Source: Candidatus Iainarchaeum sp. (GTDB lineage: Archaea; Iainarchaeota; Iainarchaeia; Iainarchaeales; JAFGBZ01). From it: DNA of 55,133 bases. Positions 4,211 to 53,668 of the stretch are shown piece by piece. Position numbers and translations under genes: made by a program. The notes beneath the pieces were generated by a model, which was not told the origin of the DNA, did not search any database, and saw nothing but the letters and a program-made list of their open reading frames with translations. The first letter of the stretch is position 1, and the number at the start of each line of letters is the position of its first letter. The stretch spans positions 1 to 55,133 of the forward strand of contig JAFGBZ010000021.1 of NCBI GenBank assembly GCA_016932875.1. Reading direction: 5' to 3'.

Positions 4211-4517
4211 TAATTAACGCCATTTTATTTGAAAGAGAAGGAGTTGTTTCTGCAAATTTAAGCAAAACAAGTTTCAAAATATAATTTAATCCTAAAAACA
4301 TTGCCCCCATAATAATGAAACCGCTTAATTCCTGAAATTGAATCCAGACAAAAACAGTTGCAATCATCAAAAAAGTATTCTTCAAAACTTTTTTTCCACC
4401 ACTAAAAAAATACATTAAAGCAGTTAAAGCAAATAAAATAAAAATGCTGCCACTAAACCAATCAATAAAGAAGCCAATGTCTAAATTCATTAAATGATAA
4501 AGCGCTTCAAATAACAC
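4155..4517 (-). CDS. Hypothetical membrane protein
   Basis: 120-aa ORF with several predicted TM helices. Confidence 0.45.
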   Translation of the reverse strand: MLFEALYHLMNLDIGFFIDWFSGSIFILFALTALMYFFSGGKKVLKNTFLMIATVFVWIQFQELSGFIIMGAMFLGLNYILKLVLLKFAETTPSLSNKMALINEVSFIFLLVGCALFVGF

Positions 4518-4572
4518 TTTTAACCCCTATATATTACCCATTCAAAAATATATAAAGTAATCGGTTAACTGA

Positions 4573-4652
4573 AAATAGTTAATTTAATCTATGAAATAGT
4601 TAATTAGTTTAACTAAAAGAGTTTTAGCAAAAAGAACAAAGTATTAGCAAAA
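4573..4652. promoter_or_regulatory. Two pairs of direct repeats upstream of the RHH gene (candidate operators)
   Basis: AAATAGTTAATT occurs at 4573-4584 and 4594-4605, 21 bp apart. TTAGCAAAA occurs at 4624-4632 and 4644-4652, 20 bp apart. Both pairs lie just upstream of the TATA-like box. Confidence 0.4.
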
Positions 4653-4658
4653 GATAGA

Positions 4659-4666
4659 TTTATATA
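4659..4666 (+). promoter_or_regulatory. TATA-box-like element for a leaderless RHH transcript
   Basis: TTTATATA centred about 27 nt upstream of ATG 4690, with no SD in between. Confidence 0.45.
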
Positions 4667-4689
4667 CACAATAAATACACATTAGATAT

Positions 4690-4968
4690 ATGAATAGTGT
4701 TTTAGTTAATTTAAGGCTTGAAAAAAATATGCTGAAAGAAATTGATTTAATTGCAAAAAAATCATTTTATAAATCTCGCACTGAATTCATTAGAGAAGCG
4801 TTAAGGAAACTGCTTGAAGAACAAAGAACTAAAGAAGCATTAAAAATCGCTGAAGAGAATTTTGGCAGAGGAAAAAGAGAAGGAATTAAAGAACCGACAA
4901 AAGAAGAAATGATTAAAATAAAAGAAAAAGTTGGAAATGAATTATTGAAAAAACATGGCTTACTCTAA
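4690..4968 (+). CDS. Ribbon-helix-helix (CopG/antitoxin-like) DNA-binding protein
   Basis: VLVNLRLEKNMLKEIDLIAKKSFYKSRTEFIREALRKLL fits a beta-strand, helix, helix RHH pattern. Confidence 0.7.
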   Translation: MNSVLVNLRLEKNMLKEIDLIAKKSFYKSRTEFIREALRKLLEEQRTKEALKIAEENFGRGKREGIKEPTKEEMIKIKEKVGNELLKKHGLL

Positions 4969-5382
4969 ATCTTCAGGTTTCAATGTTTCTGCAAAATCAT
5001 TTAATTCATTGAAATGAAAATCTCTTGAAACAATTAAAAGATTTTCTTCATGAGCAATAATTGCCTGAACACAATCCACAACAGGAAGATTTCTTTCTAA
5101 AGATAATTTTCTTGCTTTAATCACTTGTTCAGTTGTTTCCTCAATTATTTCAAATTTATTTCTTTTGATTAATCCTTTGAATACTTTTTCATTTAATTCA
5201 AATTCTGAAAAACCCAATTTATCTTTTACTTCACCAATAACTGAACTAGAAACAATAACCAAATATTTACAACCAATAGCTTCCTGAATAAATCTAAATG
5301 CGAATTCTCCTATTGGGATTAAACCATCACTTCGATTCAAATAATAATCCAGAAAAATATTTGAATCAACTAATACTTTCAT
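4960..5382 (-). CDS. PIN-domain protein (VapC-like ribonuclease)
   Basis: MKVLVDSNIFLDYY (first acidic PIN motif), later acidic residues (VVDCVQ, SRDFHF), about 140 aa. Confidence 0.75.
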   Translation of the reverse strand: MKVLVDSNIFLDYYLNRSDGLIPIGEFAFRFIQEAIGCKYLVIVSSSVIGEVKDKLGFSEFELNEKVFKGLIKRNKFEIIEETTEQVIKARKLSLERNLPVVDCVQAIIAHEENLLIVSRDFHFNELNDFAETLKPEDLE

Positions 5383-12700: not shown

Positions 12701-15307
12701 ATGCTTACCAAAAAAATTTCAGGAATTGAATTCAGTATTTTAGGACCAATACACATAAGAAAAATGAGTGTAATTGAAATCAAATCACCTGAAACATATG
12801 ATAAAGACGGCTATCCAATGGAAGACGGATTAATGGACCACCATTTAGGAGTAATCACTCCTGGATTAAGATGTAAAACCTGCGGACAAAAAATGAAGGA
12901 ATGCCCTGGACACTTTGGACACATTGAATTATTCAGACCAGTAGTGCATTCAGAATTCGGTAAAAGACTTGAAACATTAATGCATGCAACATGCGAAAAA
13001 TGCGGACGCATTTTAATTGAAGATGAAAAACTAGAAGAATTAAGACCATTAATTTTTAATCCAAATATTGATGTTGAAAAAAAAATACTTGCAAAAACAA
13101 AAAAATTAAAAAAATGTCCAAGATGCGGAGAAGCACATGACACAGTATTATTAGATAAACCAACAAATTTCTTCAGAGGAAATGAAAGAATTTATCCAAC
13201 TGAAATAAGAGCATGGGCTGAAAAAATTCCTGACTCAGATTTAGAATTCTTTGGATATAACTCAAAAAGAGTCCGCCCTGAATGGTTTGTATTAACAGTA
13301 TTACAAGTTCCACCAATAAACATTCGTCCTTCAATTACATTAGATTCAGGAATTAAATCAGAAGATGATTTAACACATAAATTAGTTGACATTATAAGAA
13401 TTAATTTAAGATTAAAAGACAACATTGAAGCAGGCGCTCCTCAATTAATTATTGAAGATTTATGGGATTTACTGCAATATCATGTAACAACTTATTTTGA
13501 TAATAATACTGCAGGAGTTCCTCCGGCAAAACACAGAAGCGGAAGAGCATTAAGAACAATAGTTCAAAGACTGCAAGGAAAAAAAGGAAGATTCAGATAT
13601 AATTTAACAGGAAAAAGAGTTAACTTCGGAGCACGTTCAATTATTACTCCTGATTTAAATATTTCAATAAATGAATTAGGAGTTCCAGAAAAAGTAGCAG
13701 ACACATTAACTGTTCCACAGTATTTAACAGACGAAAACATGAAAGACATAAAACAATTTATAAAAGACGGAAAAGTGGAATATGTAATTCGTCCAAATGG
13801 ATTAAGAAAAAGAATAACTGAAACAAACAAAGAAGAAGTTTTAGAAGAACTTGAAGCAGGATTTAAAATTGAAAGAAAACTAAAAAACGGAGACATAGTT
13901 TTATTCAACAGACAGCCTTCACTGCACAGATTATCAATGCTTGCACACCGTGCAAGAGTAATGCCAGGAAATACTTTCAGAATTAATCCAATTGTCTGCA
14001 AACCATACAATGCAGATTTTGATGGAGATGAAATGAACATGCATGTGCCTCAAACAGAGGAAGGCATTGCAGAAGCAAAAGAATTAATGATGGTTGAAAA
14101 AAATATTTTAAGCCCGCGTTATGGTGCACCAGTAGTAATACTTGATGAAGACGGAGTAACAGGTTCATTTATTTTAACCCTTGAATCAACAGTATTTGAA
14201 AAAGAAAAAGCAATGGAATATCTTCATTCAATTGGAATAACTGAACTTCCAAAACCAGACAGAGGAAAAAATTATTCAGGAAAACTTATTTTCTCACAAT
14301 TACTTCCAAAAGACTTAAATTTAGCATATAAATCAAAATTAGGAAAAACACTTGAAAAAATACTTTCAGGATATGTCTGCGAACCAGGAGACAAATACAA
14401 CACTTATGTGCAGATAAAAAACGGTGAATTAATTACAGGAGTAATAGATGAATCAAGTTTAGGTGAAGGAAGAGGAAAACTTGTAAGCGAATTAGCAAAA
14501 AATTATCCTCCTGAAGTAATTGCAAATTTTTATGATAAAATAGGAAAAATAGTGCAAGACATAGTTTACAAAAAAGGCGTAACAGTTGGATTAGATGAAT
14601 TTGAAATGAGCAAAGAAGCAAAATCCATAAGAACACGCGCAATAAAAGAAGAAGAACAAATAGCAGAAAAACTGCTTAAAGAATTTGAGAAAAAAACACT
14701 TGAAATAATTCCAGGAAGAACTTTAGAAGAATCATTTGAAGTAAAAATGATGCAGTTAGGTGCAAGAATTAAATCAAAAGTTGAAACACAATTAATGAAA
14801 GAAAAAATTGATGCATTAATAGGCGAAAACCCAGTGTTTGATTCAAAAATTATGATTGTAAGTGGTTCAAGAGGAAGCGCAACAAATTTAACAAATATTT
14901 CCGGATTATGGGGACAGGCAGCAGTAAGAGAAGGACGCCCTAAAAAAGGATTTTATAAAAGATTAATTTCAGCAAATAAACCAAAAGACATTGGAGTAAA
15001 AGCAGGAGGCTTTATTGAAAGCAATTTCATGGATGGATTAAATCCATTTGAATACTTTTACCATGCAATGGGTGGACGTCAAGGAGAAGTTGACACAGGT
15101 GTTTCAACAAAAGTTTCAGGTTACTTATACAGAAGACTTGCAAACTCATTGAAAGACTTGGTTGTAAACAGTGATTACACAGTAAGAACTCCAGATAAAA
15201 GAGTAATTCAATTCATAAGCGGAGAAGACAAAGTATTTTCCGGAAATTCCTCAAAAGGAAAAACAATGAATCTGAAAAGGGAATTAAAAAAATTCAAGGG
15301 GAAGTGA
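12701..15307 (+). CDS. rpoA1: RNA polymerase subunit A'
   Basis: Zn motifs CKTCG...CPGHFGHIEL, the active site NADFDGDEMNMHVPQ, and NRQPSLHRLSM. Confidence 0.95.
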   Translation: MLTKKISGIEFSILGPIHIRKMSVIEIKSPETYDKDGYPMEDGLMDHHLGVITPGLRCKTCGQKMKECPGHFGHIELFRPVVHSEFGKRLETLMHATCEKCGRILIEDEKLEELRPLIFNPNIDVEKKILAKTKKLKKCPRCGEAHDTVLLDKPTNFFRGNERIYPTEIRAWAEKIPDSDLEFFGYNSKRVRPEWFVLTVLQVPPINIRPSITLDSGIKSEDDLTHKLVDIIRINLRLKDNIEAGAPQLIIEDLWDLLQYHVTTYFDNNTAGVPPAKHRSGRALRTIVQRLQGKKGRFRYNLTGKRVNFGARSIITPDLNISINELGVPEKVADTLTVPQYLTDENMKDIKQFIKDGKVEYVIRPNGLRKRITETNKEEVLEELEAGFKIERKLKNGDIVLFNRQPSLHRLSMLAHRARVMPGNTFRINPIVCKPYNADFDGDEMNMHVPQTEEGIAEAKELMMVEKNILSPRYGAPVVILDEDGVTGSFILTLESTVFEKEKAMEYLHSIGITELPKPDRGKNYSGKLIFSQLLPKDLNLAYKSKLGKTLEKILSGYVCEPGDKYNTYVQIKNGELITGVIDESSLGEGRGKLVSELAKNYPPEVIANFYDKIGKIVQDIVYKKGVTVGLDEFEMSKEAKSIRTRAIKEEEQIAEKLLKEFEKKTLEIIPGRTLEESFEVKMMQLGARIKSKVETQLMKEKIDALIGENPVFDSKIMIVSGSRGSATNLTNISGLWGQAAVREGRPKKGFYKRLISANKPKDIGVKAGGFIESNFMDGLNPFEYFYHAMGGRQGEVDTGVSTKVSGYLYRRLANSLKDLVVNSDYTVRTPDKRVIQFISGEDKVFSGNSSKGKTMNLKRELKKFKGK

Positions 15308-23565: not shown

Positions 23566-24300
23566 ATGGTTAATGCAAAAAGAAACAAAGTAAGAAAAGA
23601 AGGAACGCAAACAGGACAAGCAATAGCTCAAAATTATTTAAGAACAAAAGGAATTACTGCAACAGGAAGAAAATTACCACAAAAAATGGCTGAATTAATT
23701 AAACAAACACAAAGATTAGCTAGATTAGAGAAACTAAAAAAAACAAATCCAGAAAAATTTAAACAAATACAACAAAGATATAAAAGAATGAAAGCAAACC
23801 GAGAAGCACAAGAAGAAATTAAAAGAATTAAAAGAGAACAAGGAATACAAACAGCTGAACCACTTAAAAAATTTTATCCTTCATTAGAAAAAGAAATAGT
23901 TATTGAACCAGAAGCAATACGCAAAACAACAAAACCTGAAATTAAAATAGTTAAAGTTGAAGATTTCATTTCAAGAAATATTGGATTAAATGCAAATCCG
24001 CAAAGCGATGTTCGTGTTTTGTATAATCATGCAGAAGAAATAAATAAATGGCTTTCAAGAAAAAAAATTTTTGTTGAAGAACCAAAAATTGCAGAGACAG
24101 CCTCACACGAAGTAATGCTTTACTTTGGATTAAAAAAAGGAAATCAAAGAGGACAATTTGAAATAAAACAAATTAGAAATCCTAATGACGGCTGGTATTG
24201 GAGAGAAACACTGCAAATGCCTGAAAGCACTACTACTGTTTTTCGTGATTCGAAAGGAAAAATAATCCCTAAACCAGAAAGAAAACTAAGAACCTTTTAA
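23566..24300 (+). CDS. Hypothetical protein (Lys/Arg-rich N-terminal half, globular C-terminal half)
   Basis: 244-aa ORF with no recognisable family. Confidence 0.5.
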   Translation: MVNAKRNKVRKEGTQTGQAIAQNYLRTKGITATGRKLPQKMAELIKQTQRLARLEKLKKTNPEKFKQIQQRYKRMKANREAQEEIKRIKREQGIQTAEPLKKFYPSLEKEIVIEPEAIRKTTKPEIKIVKVEDFISRNIGLNANPQSDVRVLYNHAEEINKWLSRKKIFVEEPKIAETASHEVMLYFGLKKGNQRGQFEIKQIRNPNDGWYWRETLQMPESTTTVFRDSKGKIIPKPERKLRTF

Positions 24301-24330: not shown

Positions 24331-24756
24331 ATGTCATTTGAATTATTTGAGCATACTGCTGATATTGGTTTAAGAGGAAAAGGTAAAACATTGGAAGAAG
24401 CTTTTTCAGAGTGCGGAAATGCTTTATTGGAAGTAATGAGTTTTCGTAATAAAACTGATGAAAAGAAATCAATTGAAGTTAATTGTTCAGCTGAAAGCAA
24501 AGAAAATCTTTTAGTGAATTACTTAAATGAATTATTATACATAATGGATTCAAAGGATTATTTATTCAAAAGAATTGAAGTTAAAAGTATTTTAGAAAAG
24601 GAAGCAAAGTTTTTCCTTAAAGCAGAATGTTTTGGTGAAAAGCTTGATTTTAGTAAACACGAGCTTAAAACAGAGGTTAAAGCAGCAACTTATTCAGGAT
24701 TAAAAATTCAGAAGAAAAACAATGAATTTATTGCTGAATGCATTGCGGATGTGTGA
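24331..24756 (+). CDS. Archease (RtcB activator)
   Basis: MSFELFEHTADIGLRGKGKTLEEAF and VKAATYSGLKI are typical archease N- and C-terminal motifs. Confidence 0.85.
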   Translation: MSFELFEHTADIGLRGKGKTLEEAFSECGNALLEVMSFRNKTDEKKSIEVNCSAESKENLLVNYLNELLYIMDSKDYLFKRIEVKSILEKEAKFFLKAECFGEKLDFSKHELKTEVKAATYSGLKIQKKNNEFIAECIADV

Positions 24757-24764
24757 GAAAAACA

Positions 24765-24771
24765 TTTAAAA
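24765..24771 (+). promoter_or_regulatory. TATA-like box about 26 nt upstream of the antitoxin ATG (possible internal leaderless promoter)
   Basis: TTTAAAA at 24765-24771, ATG at 24794, no SD between them. Confidence 0.35.
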
Positions 24772-24793
24772 CAATCGATACTTATTGATATCT

Positions 24794-25048
24794 ATGGCTA
24801 CTAAACAAATTAATCTGAAAATACCTTCAAACCTTTATGTCACAGCTGAATCTTTTGCTGAAACTTACGGGTACAGAAATGTTCAAGATTTGGCACTAGA
24901 ATCATTAAGGGAAAAACTTTTTGAAAAAAATGAATATGATGAAAGCTTTTCTGAAAAAGAAATTGAATTAATTGATGAACTGATTGAAAAGTCAATTAAA
25001 AAAAAGAAATTTATTTCTGAAGAAGAATTCTTGAAGGCAACTCAATGA
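24794..25048 (+). CDS. RHH-like antitoxin candidate
   Basis: KQINLKIPSNLYVTAESFAETYGYRNVQDLALESLREKL fits a strand-helix-helix pattern, followed by an acidic tail. 4-nt ATGA overlap with the downstream toxin ORF. Confidence 0.55.
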   Translation: MATKQINLKIPSNLYVTAESFAETYGYRNVQDLALESLREKLFEKNEYDESFSEKEIELIDELIEKSIKKKKFISEEEFLKATQ

Positions 25049-25335
25049 GCTTTAAAATCACTGTTTTAGAAACTCTAGTTGAACAAGTAAAAAAATTAAA
25101 TGAAAAAAGCAAAAGAATAATAGCAGAAAAAATAGAACTGATTAAAGAAAATCCTTTCAGGTTCAAAAGAATTCATTCAAAGAAATTTAATAAAGTTTTC
25201 AGAGTAAGATTAAATATTGAAAACAATGAAACAAGACTGATTTATGTTGTTCTTGAACCAAACATAATTTTAGTTTGCTTGCTTGAAAGAAAAAAAGATT
25301 ATAAAGATTTAGAAAAATATTTATCAAAAATTTAA
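25045..25335 (+). CDS. RelE/ParE-superfamily toxin candidate
   Basis: 96 aa. ...NPFRFKRIHSKKFNKVFRVRLNIENNETRLIYVVLEPNIILVCLLERKKDY follows the RelE-type pattern (xRxRxGxxRxIYxV...I.I..I..R..AY). Confidence 0.6.
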   Translation: MSFKITVLETLVEQVKKLNEKSKRIIAEKIELIKENPFRFKRIHSKKFNKVFRVRLNIENNETRLIYVVLEPNIILVCLLERKKDYKDLEKYLSKI

Positions 25336-25345
25336 AGTGAAATAA

Positions 25346-26779
25346 ATGAGTGAATTAAATCAACTAGAGGGATTTGTCTGGGAAATGCCTAAAGAAGGAA
25401 ACATGAATGTTCCTGCAAGATTATATGTTGATAAAGAAATGATTGAAACATTAAAAGAAGAAGAAAAAACTAATTGGAGCACTTTAAGGCAGTTAAGGAA
25501 TGTTGCTTCTTTGCAGGGAATCCAAAAACATGCAATAGCTCTTTCAGACTGTCACCCTGGTTATGGCGCTCCAATAGGAGGAGTTGCTGCATTTGATTTA
25601 ATGGAAGGATTAATCACGTTTGGAATTGTTGGATTTGATATTAATTGCGGAGTCAGAACTTTAAGAACTAATTTAACTTCTGATGAAATTAATTCAAAGA
25701 AAAAAGAATTAAGTGAAGCTTTATTCAATGAAATTCCTGCTGGATTAGGAGTGAAAGGAAAGCTTGAATTAAAGCCAAATGAAATTGATGAATTATTAGA
25801 AAAAGGCGCTGAATATGTTGTTGAAAAAGGATTTGGATTGAAAAATGATTTAGAATTTATTGAAGAAAAAGGATGCGTTAAAGGAGCTAATCCTGAAAAT
25901 GTTTCAATGAAAGCAAAGCAAAGACAATTCAAGCAAATTGGAACTCTGGGTTCAGGAAATCATTATCTTGAAGTGCAGGAAGTTGAAGAAATATTTGATG
26001 AAAAAACAGCTAAAGCATTTGGATTAAAAGAAAAAGAATGTGTTGTTTCAATTCATTGCGGTTCACGCGCTTTAGGACATCAAATTGGAACAGATTATTT
26101 AGAGTTTCTTGAAAAAGCAGCAAAAAAATATAAAATTAAAATTCCTGATAAAGAATTAGTTTGCGCTCCAATTCAATCAAAAGAAGGACAAAAATATTTT
26201 TCAGCAGTGAATGCAGGAATTAATTGTGCTTTTGCAAATAGGCAGATGTTAACGCATTTAACAAGAACTGTTTTTTCAAAAGTTTTTGAACTCGAAGAAA
26301 AACAAATTCAAACTCTTTATGATGTAGGACATAATACTGCTAAAATTGAAAAACATGAAGGAAAAAAATTATTAGTGCAAAGAAAAGGTGCAACAAGAGG
26401 ATTTGGAGCAGGAAGAGAAGAAATTCCTGAAAAATACCGCGCATTTGGACAGCCTGTTTTAATTGGCGGAAGCATGGGAACAAATTCATTTATTTTAAGC
26501 GGAACTGAAAAAGCAATGCATGAAACTTTTGGTTCAACAATTCATGGGGCAGGTAGAAGCAAGTCAAGGGTTGCAGCAAAAAAAGAAGTTAATGCAGAAA
26601 ATGTTATTGAATCGCTTAACAGAAAAGGAATTATTGTTAAAGGACATTCAATGAAAGGGATTGAAGAAGAAGCACCTTCAGCTTACAAAAATATTCTTGA
26701 AGTAGTTGAAGTAGTGCATAAAACAGGAATAAGCAAAAAAACAGTTAAATTAAAACCATTAATCTGCATTAAAGGATAA
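25346..26779 (+). CDS. rtcB: RNA 3'-phosphate/5'-OH ligase RtcB (tRNA-splicing ligase)
   Basis: DCHPGYGAPIGGV, FDINCGVR, GSGNHYLEVQ, HCGSRALGHQ, HNTA and HGAGR motifs. No intein. Confidence 0.95.
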   Translation: MSELNQLEGFVWEMPKEGNMNVPARLYVDKEMIETLKEEEKTNWSTLRQLRNVASLQGIQKHAIALSDCHPGYGAPIGGVAAFDLMEGLITFGIVGFDINCGVRTLRTNLTSDEINSKKKELSEALFNEIPAGLGVKGKLELKPNEIDELLEKGAEYVVEKGFGLKNDLEFIEEKGCVKGANPENVSMKAKQRQFKQIGTLGSGNHYLEVQEVEEIFDEKTAKAFGLKEKECVVSIHCGSRALGHQIGTDYLEFLEKAAKKYKIKIPDKELVCAPIQSKEGQKYFSAVNAGINCAFANRQMLTHLTRTVFSKVFELEEKQIQTLYDVGHNTAKIEKHEGKKLLVQRKGATRGFGAGREEIPEKYRAFGQPVLIGGSMGTNSFILSGTEKAMHETFGSTIHGAGRSKSRVAAKKEVNAENVIESLNRKGIIVKGHSMKGIEEEAPSAYKNILEVVEVVHKTGISKKTVKLKPLICIKG

Positions 26780-53105: not shown

Positions 53106-53366
53106 TTAGAGATATGCTTCATCGTGATGAACAAATTTATCAAAAATCACAGTATCTTCTTCTACTTTAAACATTAATACATAGCTTCCAATGTGAACTC
53201 TTTTGAATTCATTTAATGGTTTTCTTAAATTTTTAAAGTGATGGATTGTTTGTTTATCTAATTCTGCTATTTGAATTATTTTTTTTTGAAGCGCGTTGAA
53301 TAAAGAAATGTCTTTTTTCTTTAGTTTCTTCAAAGTGTCTTCTAAAGCAGAGACATCTATTTTCAA
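53106..53366 (-). CDS. RelE/ParE-superfamily toxin
   Basis: ...LRKPLNEFKRVHIGSYVLMFKVEEDTVIFDKFVHHDEAY. 86 aa, with a 4-nt overlap with the upstream ORF. Confidence 0.65.
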   Translation of the reverse strand: MKIDVSALEDTLKKLKKKDISLFNALQKKIIQIAELDKQTIHHFKNLRKPLNEFKRVHIGSYVLMFKVEEDTVIFDKFVHHDEAYL

Positions 53367-53668
53367 AGTAAATCACACCATTTAATAAATTCCTTTGAAT
53401 TCATTGGCTTGATTTCACCTGATTTAATTTTTTTGCTTGTTTTTTCAATGGATTTAATTACTTCTTTAGCAATTTCTTCTTTAATTTCTCTTTTATCCGA
53501 ATCACTTATTTCAGATAATTCCCTTACTTTTTTCATTGCCTGCAAAGCTTCAACATCAGTTAAAGTTTCCGCAAAAGCACCTCTTGCAACAGAAGACCAA
53601 TTAACCCAATCAGTTGCATCCATTTTTGCTTTTAAATCATCTGAAACCGATAAAGTAATAGTAGCCAT
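53363..53668 (-). CDS. Antitoxin candidate (RHH-like N-terminus)
   Basis: MATITLSVSDDLKAKMDATDW... then an acidic, helical tail. Lies upstream of and overlaps the toxin ORF. Confidence 0.5.
   Translation of the reverse strand: MATITLSVSDDLKAKMDATDWVNWSSVARGAFAETLTDVEALQAMKKVRELSEISDSDKREIKEEIAKEVIKSIEKTSKKIKSGEIKPMNSKEFIKWCDLL

Follow-up and report, generated by a model that had tools for sequence, protein, structure and literature searches.

A stand-alone RelE-type toxin-antitoxin cassette probably hitch-hiked between archease and rtcB in an Iainarchaeum lineage

The element analysed here lies in a 55,133-nucleotide (nt) contig of a Candidatus Iainarchaeum sp. metagenome-assembled genome (JAFGBZ010000021.1, assembly GCA_016932875.1; 31% GC), the whole of which we call the window. 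Between the genes for archease and for the RNA ligase RtcB, two small genes on the same strand encode a putative ribbon-helix-helix (RHH) antitoxin of 84 amino acids (aa) and a putative RelE-type toxin of 96 aa. An earlier note on this DNA had read the locus as a physically coupled RNA-damage/RNA-repair cassette. Our analysis makes it very probable that a stand-alone RHH/RelE cassette of ~580 bp hitch-hiked into the archease-rtcB spacer, in this lineage only, and that the locus does not represent a conserved damage/repair system. Apart from its unusual location the pair is an unremarkable toxin-antitoxin system, belonging to an unannotated family of RelE/RHH type II systems, and the striking neighbourhood of damage and repair functions is most likely an accident of insertion, not a designed system.

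The closest homologues of the window RtcB are 79%, 78% and 68% identical to it. In L085, the closest relative, whose RtcB is 79% and whose archease is 65% identical and whose downstream genes are syntenic, the junction reads ...GATGTGTGA AA ATG..., with 2 nt from the archease TGA to the rtcB ATG and no insert. Four further relatives (L169, L170, L172 and L173; RtcB 65–68% identical) share the EF-1alpha/S10...L3 synteny of the window and have archease-rtcB gaps of 24–74 nt. We read the insertion as lineage-specific because the cassette is absent from these five junctions and has unrelated neighbours elsewhere. Across the wider survey, 69 of 84 RtcB loci have a co-directional archease gene ahead of rtcB, almost always at most 200 nt away, and in only two of these does the gap exceed 500 nt. 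The RtcB metagenome scan returned mostly distant RtcBs (47–59% identical, bacterial ones included) and few close relatives, and it serves as a general survey of spacing only.

The cassette itself was surveyed in 84 loci, representing 80 species-representative genomes and four further contigs; promoter and neighbour counts refer to 81 non-redundant loci. Neither archease nor rtcB was found within 6 kb of the cassette at any of the 84. Clustering of the genes around the 81 copies gave no family common to more than 5 loci and no conserved partner, such as one for RNA repair; the largest neighbour clusters were rejected as artefacts, one arising from the antitoxin itself, called as a long open reading frame (ORF), and the other from an antisense ORF. 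Among the genes that do flank cassette copies are further toxin-antitoxin genes and an integrase, and a tRNA 3' end was also seen. We regard the cassette as mobile because its neighbours are unrelated from locus to locus. Among archease-rtcB junctions the pair occurs in that of this genome only, with random neighbours elsewhere, the pattern that the earlier note had named beforehand as contradicting a coupled system. Its suggestion that RtcB has been placed under toxin-antitoxin control is likewise not borne out, since the neighbours are unrelated in 84 of 84 other loci and the nearest relatives have archease beside rtcB.

Two of the cassette contexts are typical of integrated mobile elements. 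At L015 (~2060–2130) the cassette stands directly after what appears by eye to be a tRNA 3' end (GGTTCAAATCCCAGTGACCCCA), and at L002 (1–420) a phage-type integrase lies ~4.5 kb away and a HEPN/nucleotidyltransferase pair adjoins the cassette. A scan of viral contigs (IMG/VR) for the toxin family found no relatives, so there was no sign of a viral vehicle.

Judged by its conserved organization, the pair appears to be a complete stand-alone type II toxin-antitoxin cassette, of a family distributed across DPANN archaea and some Methanosarcinales. Toxin homologues number more than 500, at 55–80% identity and from several archaeal phyla; a toxin profile search of 1.84 billion protein representatives gave 123 matches at E ≤1e-3 and only 5 at E ≤1e-30. 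An antitoxin homologue lies directly upstream of the toxin, co-oriented, in 84 of 84 loci, and the ATGA overlap of the two genes is kept in 77. Homology among the copies runs from about −37, relative to the antitoxin ATG, to the toxin stop codon. Past that stop the other copies share no sequence conservation, and the GTGA ribosome-binding site that precedes rtcB in the window was not found there.

The conserved upstream segment holds a candidate promoter and operator. In 71 of the 81 loci the antitoxin ATG is preceded by a TATA-like hexamer whose first base lies at −36 to −24, most commonly at −31 or −30; in the window it lies at −29, and the centre of TTTAAAA is 26 nt ahead of the ATG at 24794. 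Archaeal TATA boxes are centred ~26 nt ahead of the transcription start. The cassette transcript is read as leaderless because the spacing from TATA box to antitoxin ATG fits this norm. Between TATA box and ATG, at least two GATAYC-type sites occur in 58 of the 81 loci, at a spacing of exactly 10 bp in 79 of 81 spacings; a control region further upstream held such site pairs in 0 of 81. The window operator (GATACTTATTGATATC) consists of GATACT and GATATC at the same 10-bp spacing; its sites would overlap both the predicted transcription start and the translation start, and palindromes occur there. The proposal of the earlier note that the pair brings its own leaderless, probably autoregulated promoter thus gains from the conservation of both elements over 81 loci, and the prediction that TATA box and operator travel with the pair as such a promoter is well supported. 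By analogy with the way RHH antitoxins work, the antitoxin would be the repressor.

Eight cassette copies are binned to genomes of Methanosarcinales or anaerobic methanotrophic archaea (L053, L054, L062, L064, L066, L078, L080 and L084). Their toxins keep 58–64% identity and their antitoxins only 43–47%, and the GATATC repeats of the operator are replaced by palindromes of the ATACCAAT...ATTGGTAT type. This looks like co-variation of antitoxin and operator. These copies possibly reflect exchange of the cassette between DPANN archaea and the hosts of these archaea, or mis-binning.

The features of the locus are given in Table 1. The ORFs, the ATGA overlap (25045–25048, seen in both the sequence and the ORF table), the 10-nt gap between toxin and rtcB and the TTTAAAA box described earlier all agree in their coordinates with the raw sequence. 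An alternative TTG start at 24785 would give an antitoxin of 87 aa; the ATG at 24794 is favoured because homologues span 83–86 aa. Downstream, the rtcB ATG lies 10 nt past the toxin stop on the same strand and is preceded by GTGAAATAAATG. Allowing at most one mismatch, the window contains 13 copies of this motif where 1.0 would be expected, a number that none of 100 shuffles reached. Its sites include 12692, 15304, 22804, 25337, 36839 and 47900. Several copies run right up to an ORF start codon within RNA-polymerase and ribosomal-protein clusters (for example at 12701, 15313, 36848 and 47909), as the earlier note had noticed in likening the rtcB junction to those between ribosomal protein genes; another stands at the EF-1alpha/S10 junction (ORF start 22813). 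Because its copies recur and end at the start codons of operon ORFs, GTGAAATAAATG is recognized as the host's usual, very stereotyped GTGA-N5-ATG ribosome-binding context, used beside leaderless-type promoters.

The cassette runs in the sense direction and leaves the host genes undamaged, with the stop codon of archease and the ribosome-binding site and start codon of rtcB all preserved. Its GC content (24.7%) falls at the 1.5th percentile of 580-nt windows in the contig, and the third-codon-position GC of its genes (0.16–0.19) matches that of archease and rtcB (0.15–0.20). A candidate target-site duplication of GTGA at both edges (GTGTGA|G..., ...TAA A|GTGA) was rejected, GTGA being the host ribosome-binding motif.

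Table 1. Features of the archease-rtcB locus, of other toxin-antitoxin genes in the window, and of the L128 junction.
Sequence	Feature	Position	Strand	Remarks
Window	Archease	24331–24756	+	Pfam PF01951, E 3e-41, model positions 1–136 of 136; NCBIfam NF001617 above cutoff
Window	Toxin-antitoxin cassette (promoter, operator, antitoxin, toxin), ~580 bp, probably inserted	24757–25335	+	Missing in L085
Window	TATA box TTTAAAA of predicted cassette promoter	24765–24771	+	A-rich stretch resembling a B-recognition element ahead of the box at 24758–24762
Window	Putative operator, two GATAYC-type sites GATACTTATT GATATCTATG 10 bp apart	24777–24796	+	Second site overlaps antitoxin start codon
Window	Putative antitoxin, 84 aa	24794–25048	+	N-terminal RHH domain, ~residues 3–45, and C-terminal helical, presumed toxin-binding part
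Window	Probable RelE-family toxin, 96 aa	25045–25335	+	AlphaFold2 fold, Foldseek, 77-sequence profile
Window	Host-type ribosome-binding site of rtcB (GTGA + 5-nt spacer)	25337–25345	+	Recurrent window motif
Window	rtcB (3'-phosphate/5'-OH RNA ligase)	25346–26779	+	Pfam PF01139, E 7e-163, model positions 1–426 of 426
Window	Second RelE/ParE-type pair	53106–53668	-	86-aa ParE_toxin match, E 7e-5, just above Pfam cutoff
Window	RHH_1 (CopG-type) gene, 92 aa	4690–4968	+	Convergent with PIN gene
Window	PIN-domain gene, 140 aa	4960–5382	-	Toxin-antitoxin-like
L128	RelE/ParE toxin	4410–4661	-	PF05016, E 1e-15
L128	Antitoxin	4654–4926	-	DUF7557

The identification of the toxin rests on structure prediction and on the profile of its family. 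An AlphaFold2 model built on 36 homologues (mean predicted local distance difference test score, pLDDT, 89.7; predicted template modelling score 0.79) has the secondary-structure order E-H-H-E-E-E-E-H, that of the small alpha/beta RelE/ParE fold, in which an N-terminal helical hairpin packs on an antiparallel beta-sheet. The best Foldseek matches were Pyrococcus horikoshii aRelE (1wmi_A; E 4.6e-4, template modelling (TM) scores 0.64/0.69) and Escherichia coli RelE (4fxe_E; TM 0.67/0.78); all of the top 50 belong to the RelE/ParE superfamily, with ParE structures appearing from ranks 13–14 on. Identity to the solved RelEs in these alignments is only 13–20%. Taken alone, the window toxin gives sub-threshold Pfam matches to Gp49 (22.5 bits against a cutoff of 23.9), ParE-like, ParE and YoeB, and matches no NCBIfam model above threshold. 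Searches of PDB sequences with the single toxin (phmmer) or with a 36-sequence profile returned nothing useful, and hhalign of a toxin alignment (A1) against an approximate E. coli RelE query was uninformative, with a probability of 3.8%, in a register that agrees with the alignment described next. A profile hidden Markov model (HMM) of 77 sequences (A7) matched E. coli RelE (E 6.7e-8), aRelE (3.2e-5) and then YoeB and other RelEs in the PDB; no ParE structure was among its 15 sequence matches. Of the 77 members of this extended family, 18 match Pfam ParE_toxin (PF05016), the best at E 3.6e-11.

The catalytic residues of E. coli RelE are K52, K54, R61, R81 and Y87. In the HMM alignment, toxin residues R53, R55, R64, R82 and Y86 align with RelE K52, K54, R61, R83 and Y87; R82 thus falls on R83 and not on R81, for which the counterpart is inexact and uncertain; the other four catalytic positions have conservative equivalents. 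Over the 77 sequences, distant members included, three residues never vary (P37, R64 and R82) and two almost never do (Y67 and Y86). Together, the predicted fold, the Foldseek matches, the profile match to E. coli RelE and the RelE-like residues at most of the aligned catalytic positions uphold the RelE/ParE-like assignment of the earlier note, and the 96-aa protein is most likely a RelE-type toxin that would cut mRNA on the ribosome.

For the antitoxin, the AlphaFold2 model has a pLDDT of 78.7 overall and ~90 for residues 11–40, with a helix-helix layout after an N-terminal strand-forming segment. Nearly all of its Foldseek matches are RHH proteins (PrpA/ParD at the top, then Arc, NikR, AtaR, DinJ and CopG), at E-values that are not significant; it superposes on Arc with a root-mean-square deviation of 1.3 Å over 45 aa and on NikR with 1.1 Å over 44 aa. 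No Pfam or NCBIfam family was found for it; its profile gives a match to the HicB3 antitoxin, in the RHH domain, at E 8.5e-4. The RHH-like character noted earlier is supported by these structural matches and by the HicB3 profile match, and we assign the 84-aa protein as a predicted RHH antitoxin.

In such a system, as judged from other RHH/RelE pairs, antitoxin dimers aided by bound toxin would occupy the operator and repress the cassette promoter, and loss of the antitoxin would free the toxin to cleave mRNA on the ribosome. The cassette would have entered, in sense orientation and precisely, a very short archease-rtcB spacer. The rtcB gene, ancestrally coupled to archease, would now be transcribed both by read-through from archease and from the cassette promoter, and its translation would start from the GTGA ribosome-binding site of host type that it has kept. 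Co-transcription of rtcB with the cassette is plausible on the layout of the locus (same strand, 10-nt gap, GTGA ribosome-binding site, no obvious stop to read-through). The translational coupling from toxin to ligase suggested in the earlier note would likewise be compatible with that layout. A terminator was sought between toxin and rtcB and none was found; the only T5 run (24918) is within the antitoxin gene and is uninformative in a genome of 31% GC. RtcB levels may on this account partly track the autoregulation of the toxin-antitoxin pair, a wiring that shows no sign of having been selected.

Whether the linkage is functional is the principal question. Cleavage by RelE-type toxins yields ends with a cyclic phosphate and a 5'-OH. 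A selected coupling would hold that RtcB and archease reseal the 2',3'-cyclic-phosphate/5'-OH ends made by RelE, that linkage or co-transcription was favoured for this reason, and that repair rises when the cassette promoter is de-repressed. The match of end chemistries, as argued in the earlier note, is sound, and the sense cassette stands 10 nt from rtcB with the ribosome-binding site intact. A further point comes from another RtcB locus, L128 (contig Ga0247842_10007874), in which an archease-rtcB gap of 596 nt (4402–4997) is filled by a different, independent RelE/ParE pair on the opposite strand. In the RtcB loci (84 loci, 621 kb, ~665 genes) RelE-like ORFs were searched for by Pfam on 190 small ORFs (for the larger set, the top 25 families), by iterative local searches and with the A7 HMM, and this pair was the only hit. 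It could point to a non-random association of RelE with archease-rtcB, and is suggestive in that sense; its placement by chance has a probability of ~0.1 (69 archease-rtcB junctions among ~665), which is not significant. Because the L128 pair is antisense, it cannot be co-transcribed with rtcB, and it breaks the operon. None of the 84 cassette copies lies near rtcB or archease, and no insert is present in the five closest relatives whose archease-rtcB junctions are readable and directly adjacent. Toxin-antitoxin genes are also dense in this genome, the window alone carrying no fewer than two RelE/ParE pairs as well as RHH and PIN genes. The damage/repair reading of the earlier note thus stands as far as the end chemistry goes and is not supported as a coupled system, and we consider a selected functional coupling unlikely. 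The broader proposal that RelE-type cassettes are recurrently and adaptively captured at archease-rtcB, in sense in the window and antisense in L128, where they would aid recovery from or tolerance of RelE cuts, with rtcB partly wired to de-repression of the cassette, is given a similarly low probability. In literature searches, no earlier description of a toxin-antitoxin pair between archease and rtcB came up.

Two other explanations concern the cassette itself. Rather than an mRNA endonuclease, the 96-aa protein might be a gyrase poison of the ParE type, or a domesticated protein of RelE fold that is inactive. The sub-threshold single-sequence matches to Gp49, ParE-like and ParE, the ParE structures lower in the Foldseek list and the missing counterpart of RelE R81 would all fit this. 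The PDB profile matches are RelE, aRelE and YoeB and never ParE, though, and the basic and tyrosine residues aligned to catalytic residues of RelE vary little or not at all; strict pairing with the antitoxin and a conserved operator further argue for a live toxin, and we consider this explanation quite improbable. Alternatively the cassette could have been mis-joined into the contig from another organism during assembly. The window does come from a metagenome-assembled genome, cassette GC is at the low extreme for the window, and near-identical cassettes occur in many co-occurring archaea. A chimera, however, would call for exact breaks at two places 580 bp from each other, both flanks continue one syntenic host operon within a 55-kb contig, neither the stop codon of archease nor the ribosome-binding site or start of rtcB is damaged, and the third-position GC of the cassette genes matches that of their neighbours. 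An assembly artefact is accordingly very improbable. Against the lineage-specific hitch-hiking of a RelE cassette that we favour it can be said that the single window toxin falls below Pfam gathering thresholds, that a RelE/ParE pair occupies the L128 junction, that selection for a functional operon or for joint expression would produce an equally tidy insertion, and that neither repeats nor target duplications were demonstrable.

The archease-rtcB locus sits within a conserved block comprising RNA polymerase, EF-2, EF-1alpha, S10 and ribosomal-protein genes starting at L3. Between S10 and archease the window carries a 244-aa lysine-rich ORF (23566–24300, + strand) without a significant Pfam match; relatives have at this position an 893-aa CoA-ligase/acetyltransferase (L170), a NUDIX gene (L173) or nothing (L172). 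The S10-archease position is variable, unlike the rest of this conserved block. In a sister lineage (L087, 1344–3940, and L171, 799–2934; RtcB 65–67% identical) a PKD-domain protein of 630–711 aa directly precedes rtcB, and in L087 this protein and an unannotated 199-aa minus-strand gene part archease from rtcB by 2.7 kb. Within the clade, the archease-rtcB junction has therefore been disrupted on more than one occasion. Three RtcB homologues (P0141, P0151 and P0167; 614 aa, 63–65% identical) carry an intein (PF14890), and the window RtcB has none. Scans of the window for tRNAs and Rfam families gave no matches. In the second RelE/ParE-type pair of the window (Table 1) a 101-aa ORF lies ahead of the toxin with a 4-nt overlap; this pair is unrelated in sequence to the studied cassette, and the A7 HMM gives no match to it.

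The locus offers a clean, datable case in which a minimal archaeal toxin-antitoxin cassette landed in an essential, tightly packed operon without breaking it, with the empty site kept in a close relative. It also brings to light a RelE/RHH family of great uniformity, found widely among DPANN archaea, that current Pfam and NCBIfam models do not detect. The readable promoter and operator should be useful for annotation and for the study of leaderless autoregulated promoters in archaea. Were a selected RelE-RtcB/archease linkage true after all, this would be the first archaeal toxin hard-wired to an enzyme able to reverse its damage, a natural archaeal 'cut-and-reseal' module, and would imply a physiological RNA-repair role for archaeal RtcB beyond tRNA splicing.

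Comparable known systems include the repair of toxin-cut RNA by bacterial RtcB. RtcB seals cyclic-phosphate/5'-OH ends and re-ligates MazF-cut 16S rRNA in E. coli (PMC5416887), so that the undoing of toxin-made RNA cuts by RtcB is already published for MazF; RtcB2-PrfH acts against colicin E3 damage, and its gene linkage is conserved (PMC9223846). The likeness is that the ends made by an endoribonuclease toxin suit a sealing ligase. The functional link is experimentally shown in those systems, whereas at the window locus the link is physical only, confined to one genome and absent from 84 cassette copies. Compared with the canonical archease-rtcB operon of archaea and bacteria, the window genes are both intact, on one strand and with archease first, but the gap between them is 589 nt and holds two extra genes, where 2–100 nt is usual.

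As a toxin-antitoxin system, the cassette resembles ParDE in having an RHH antitoxin followed by a toxin of RelE/ParE fold, and the top Foldseek match of its antitoxin is PrpA/ParD. It differs in that its toxin profile reaches RelE and YoeB and no ParE structure. ParE proteins lack the RelE catalytic residues, the likes of which the cassette toxin appears largely to retain. With RelBE systems (E. coli RelE; P. horikoshii aRelE-aRelB, 1WMI; Methanocaldococcus jannaschii RelE3, 3BPQ) it shares the predicted toxin fold, profile-level toxin similarity to E. coli RelE and aRelE with the aligned Arg/Arg/Arg/Arg/Tyr set, an antitoxin gene that comes first and overlaps the toxin gene, and operator repeats at the promoter. 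In contrast to these systems, the window toxin is only 13–20% identical to solved RelEs and lies under every Pfam and NCBIfam threshold. P. horikoshii aRelB wraps round its toxin; the window antitoxin is unlike aRelB, with an RHH-type N-terminus and no Pfam match. The cassette promoter differs as well, being of the archaeal TATA type with a predicted leaderless start, and the family is unusually uniform, at 55–80% identity across phyla.

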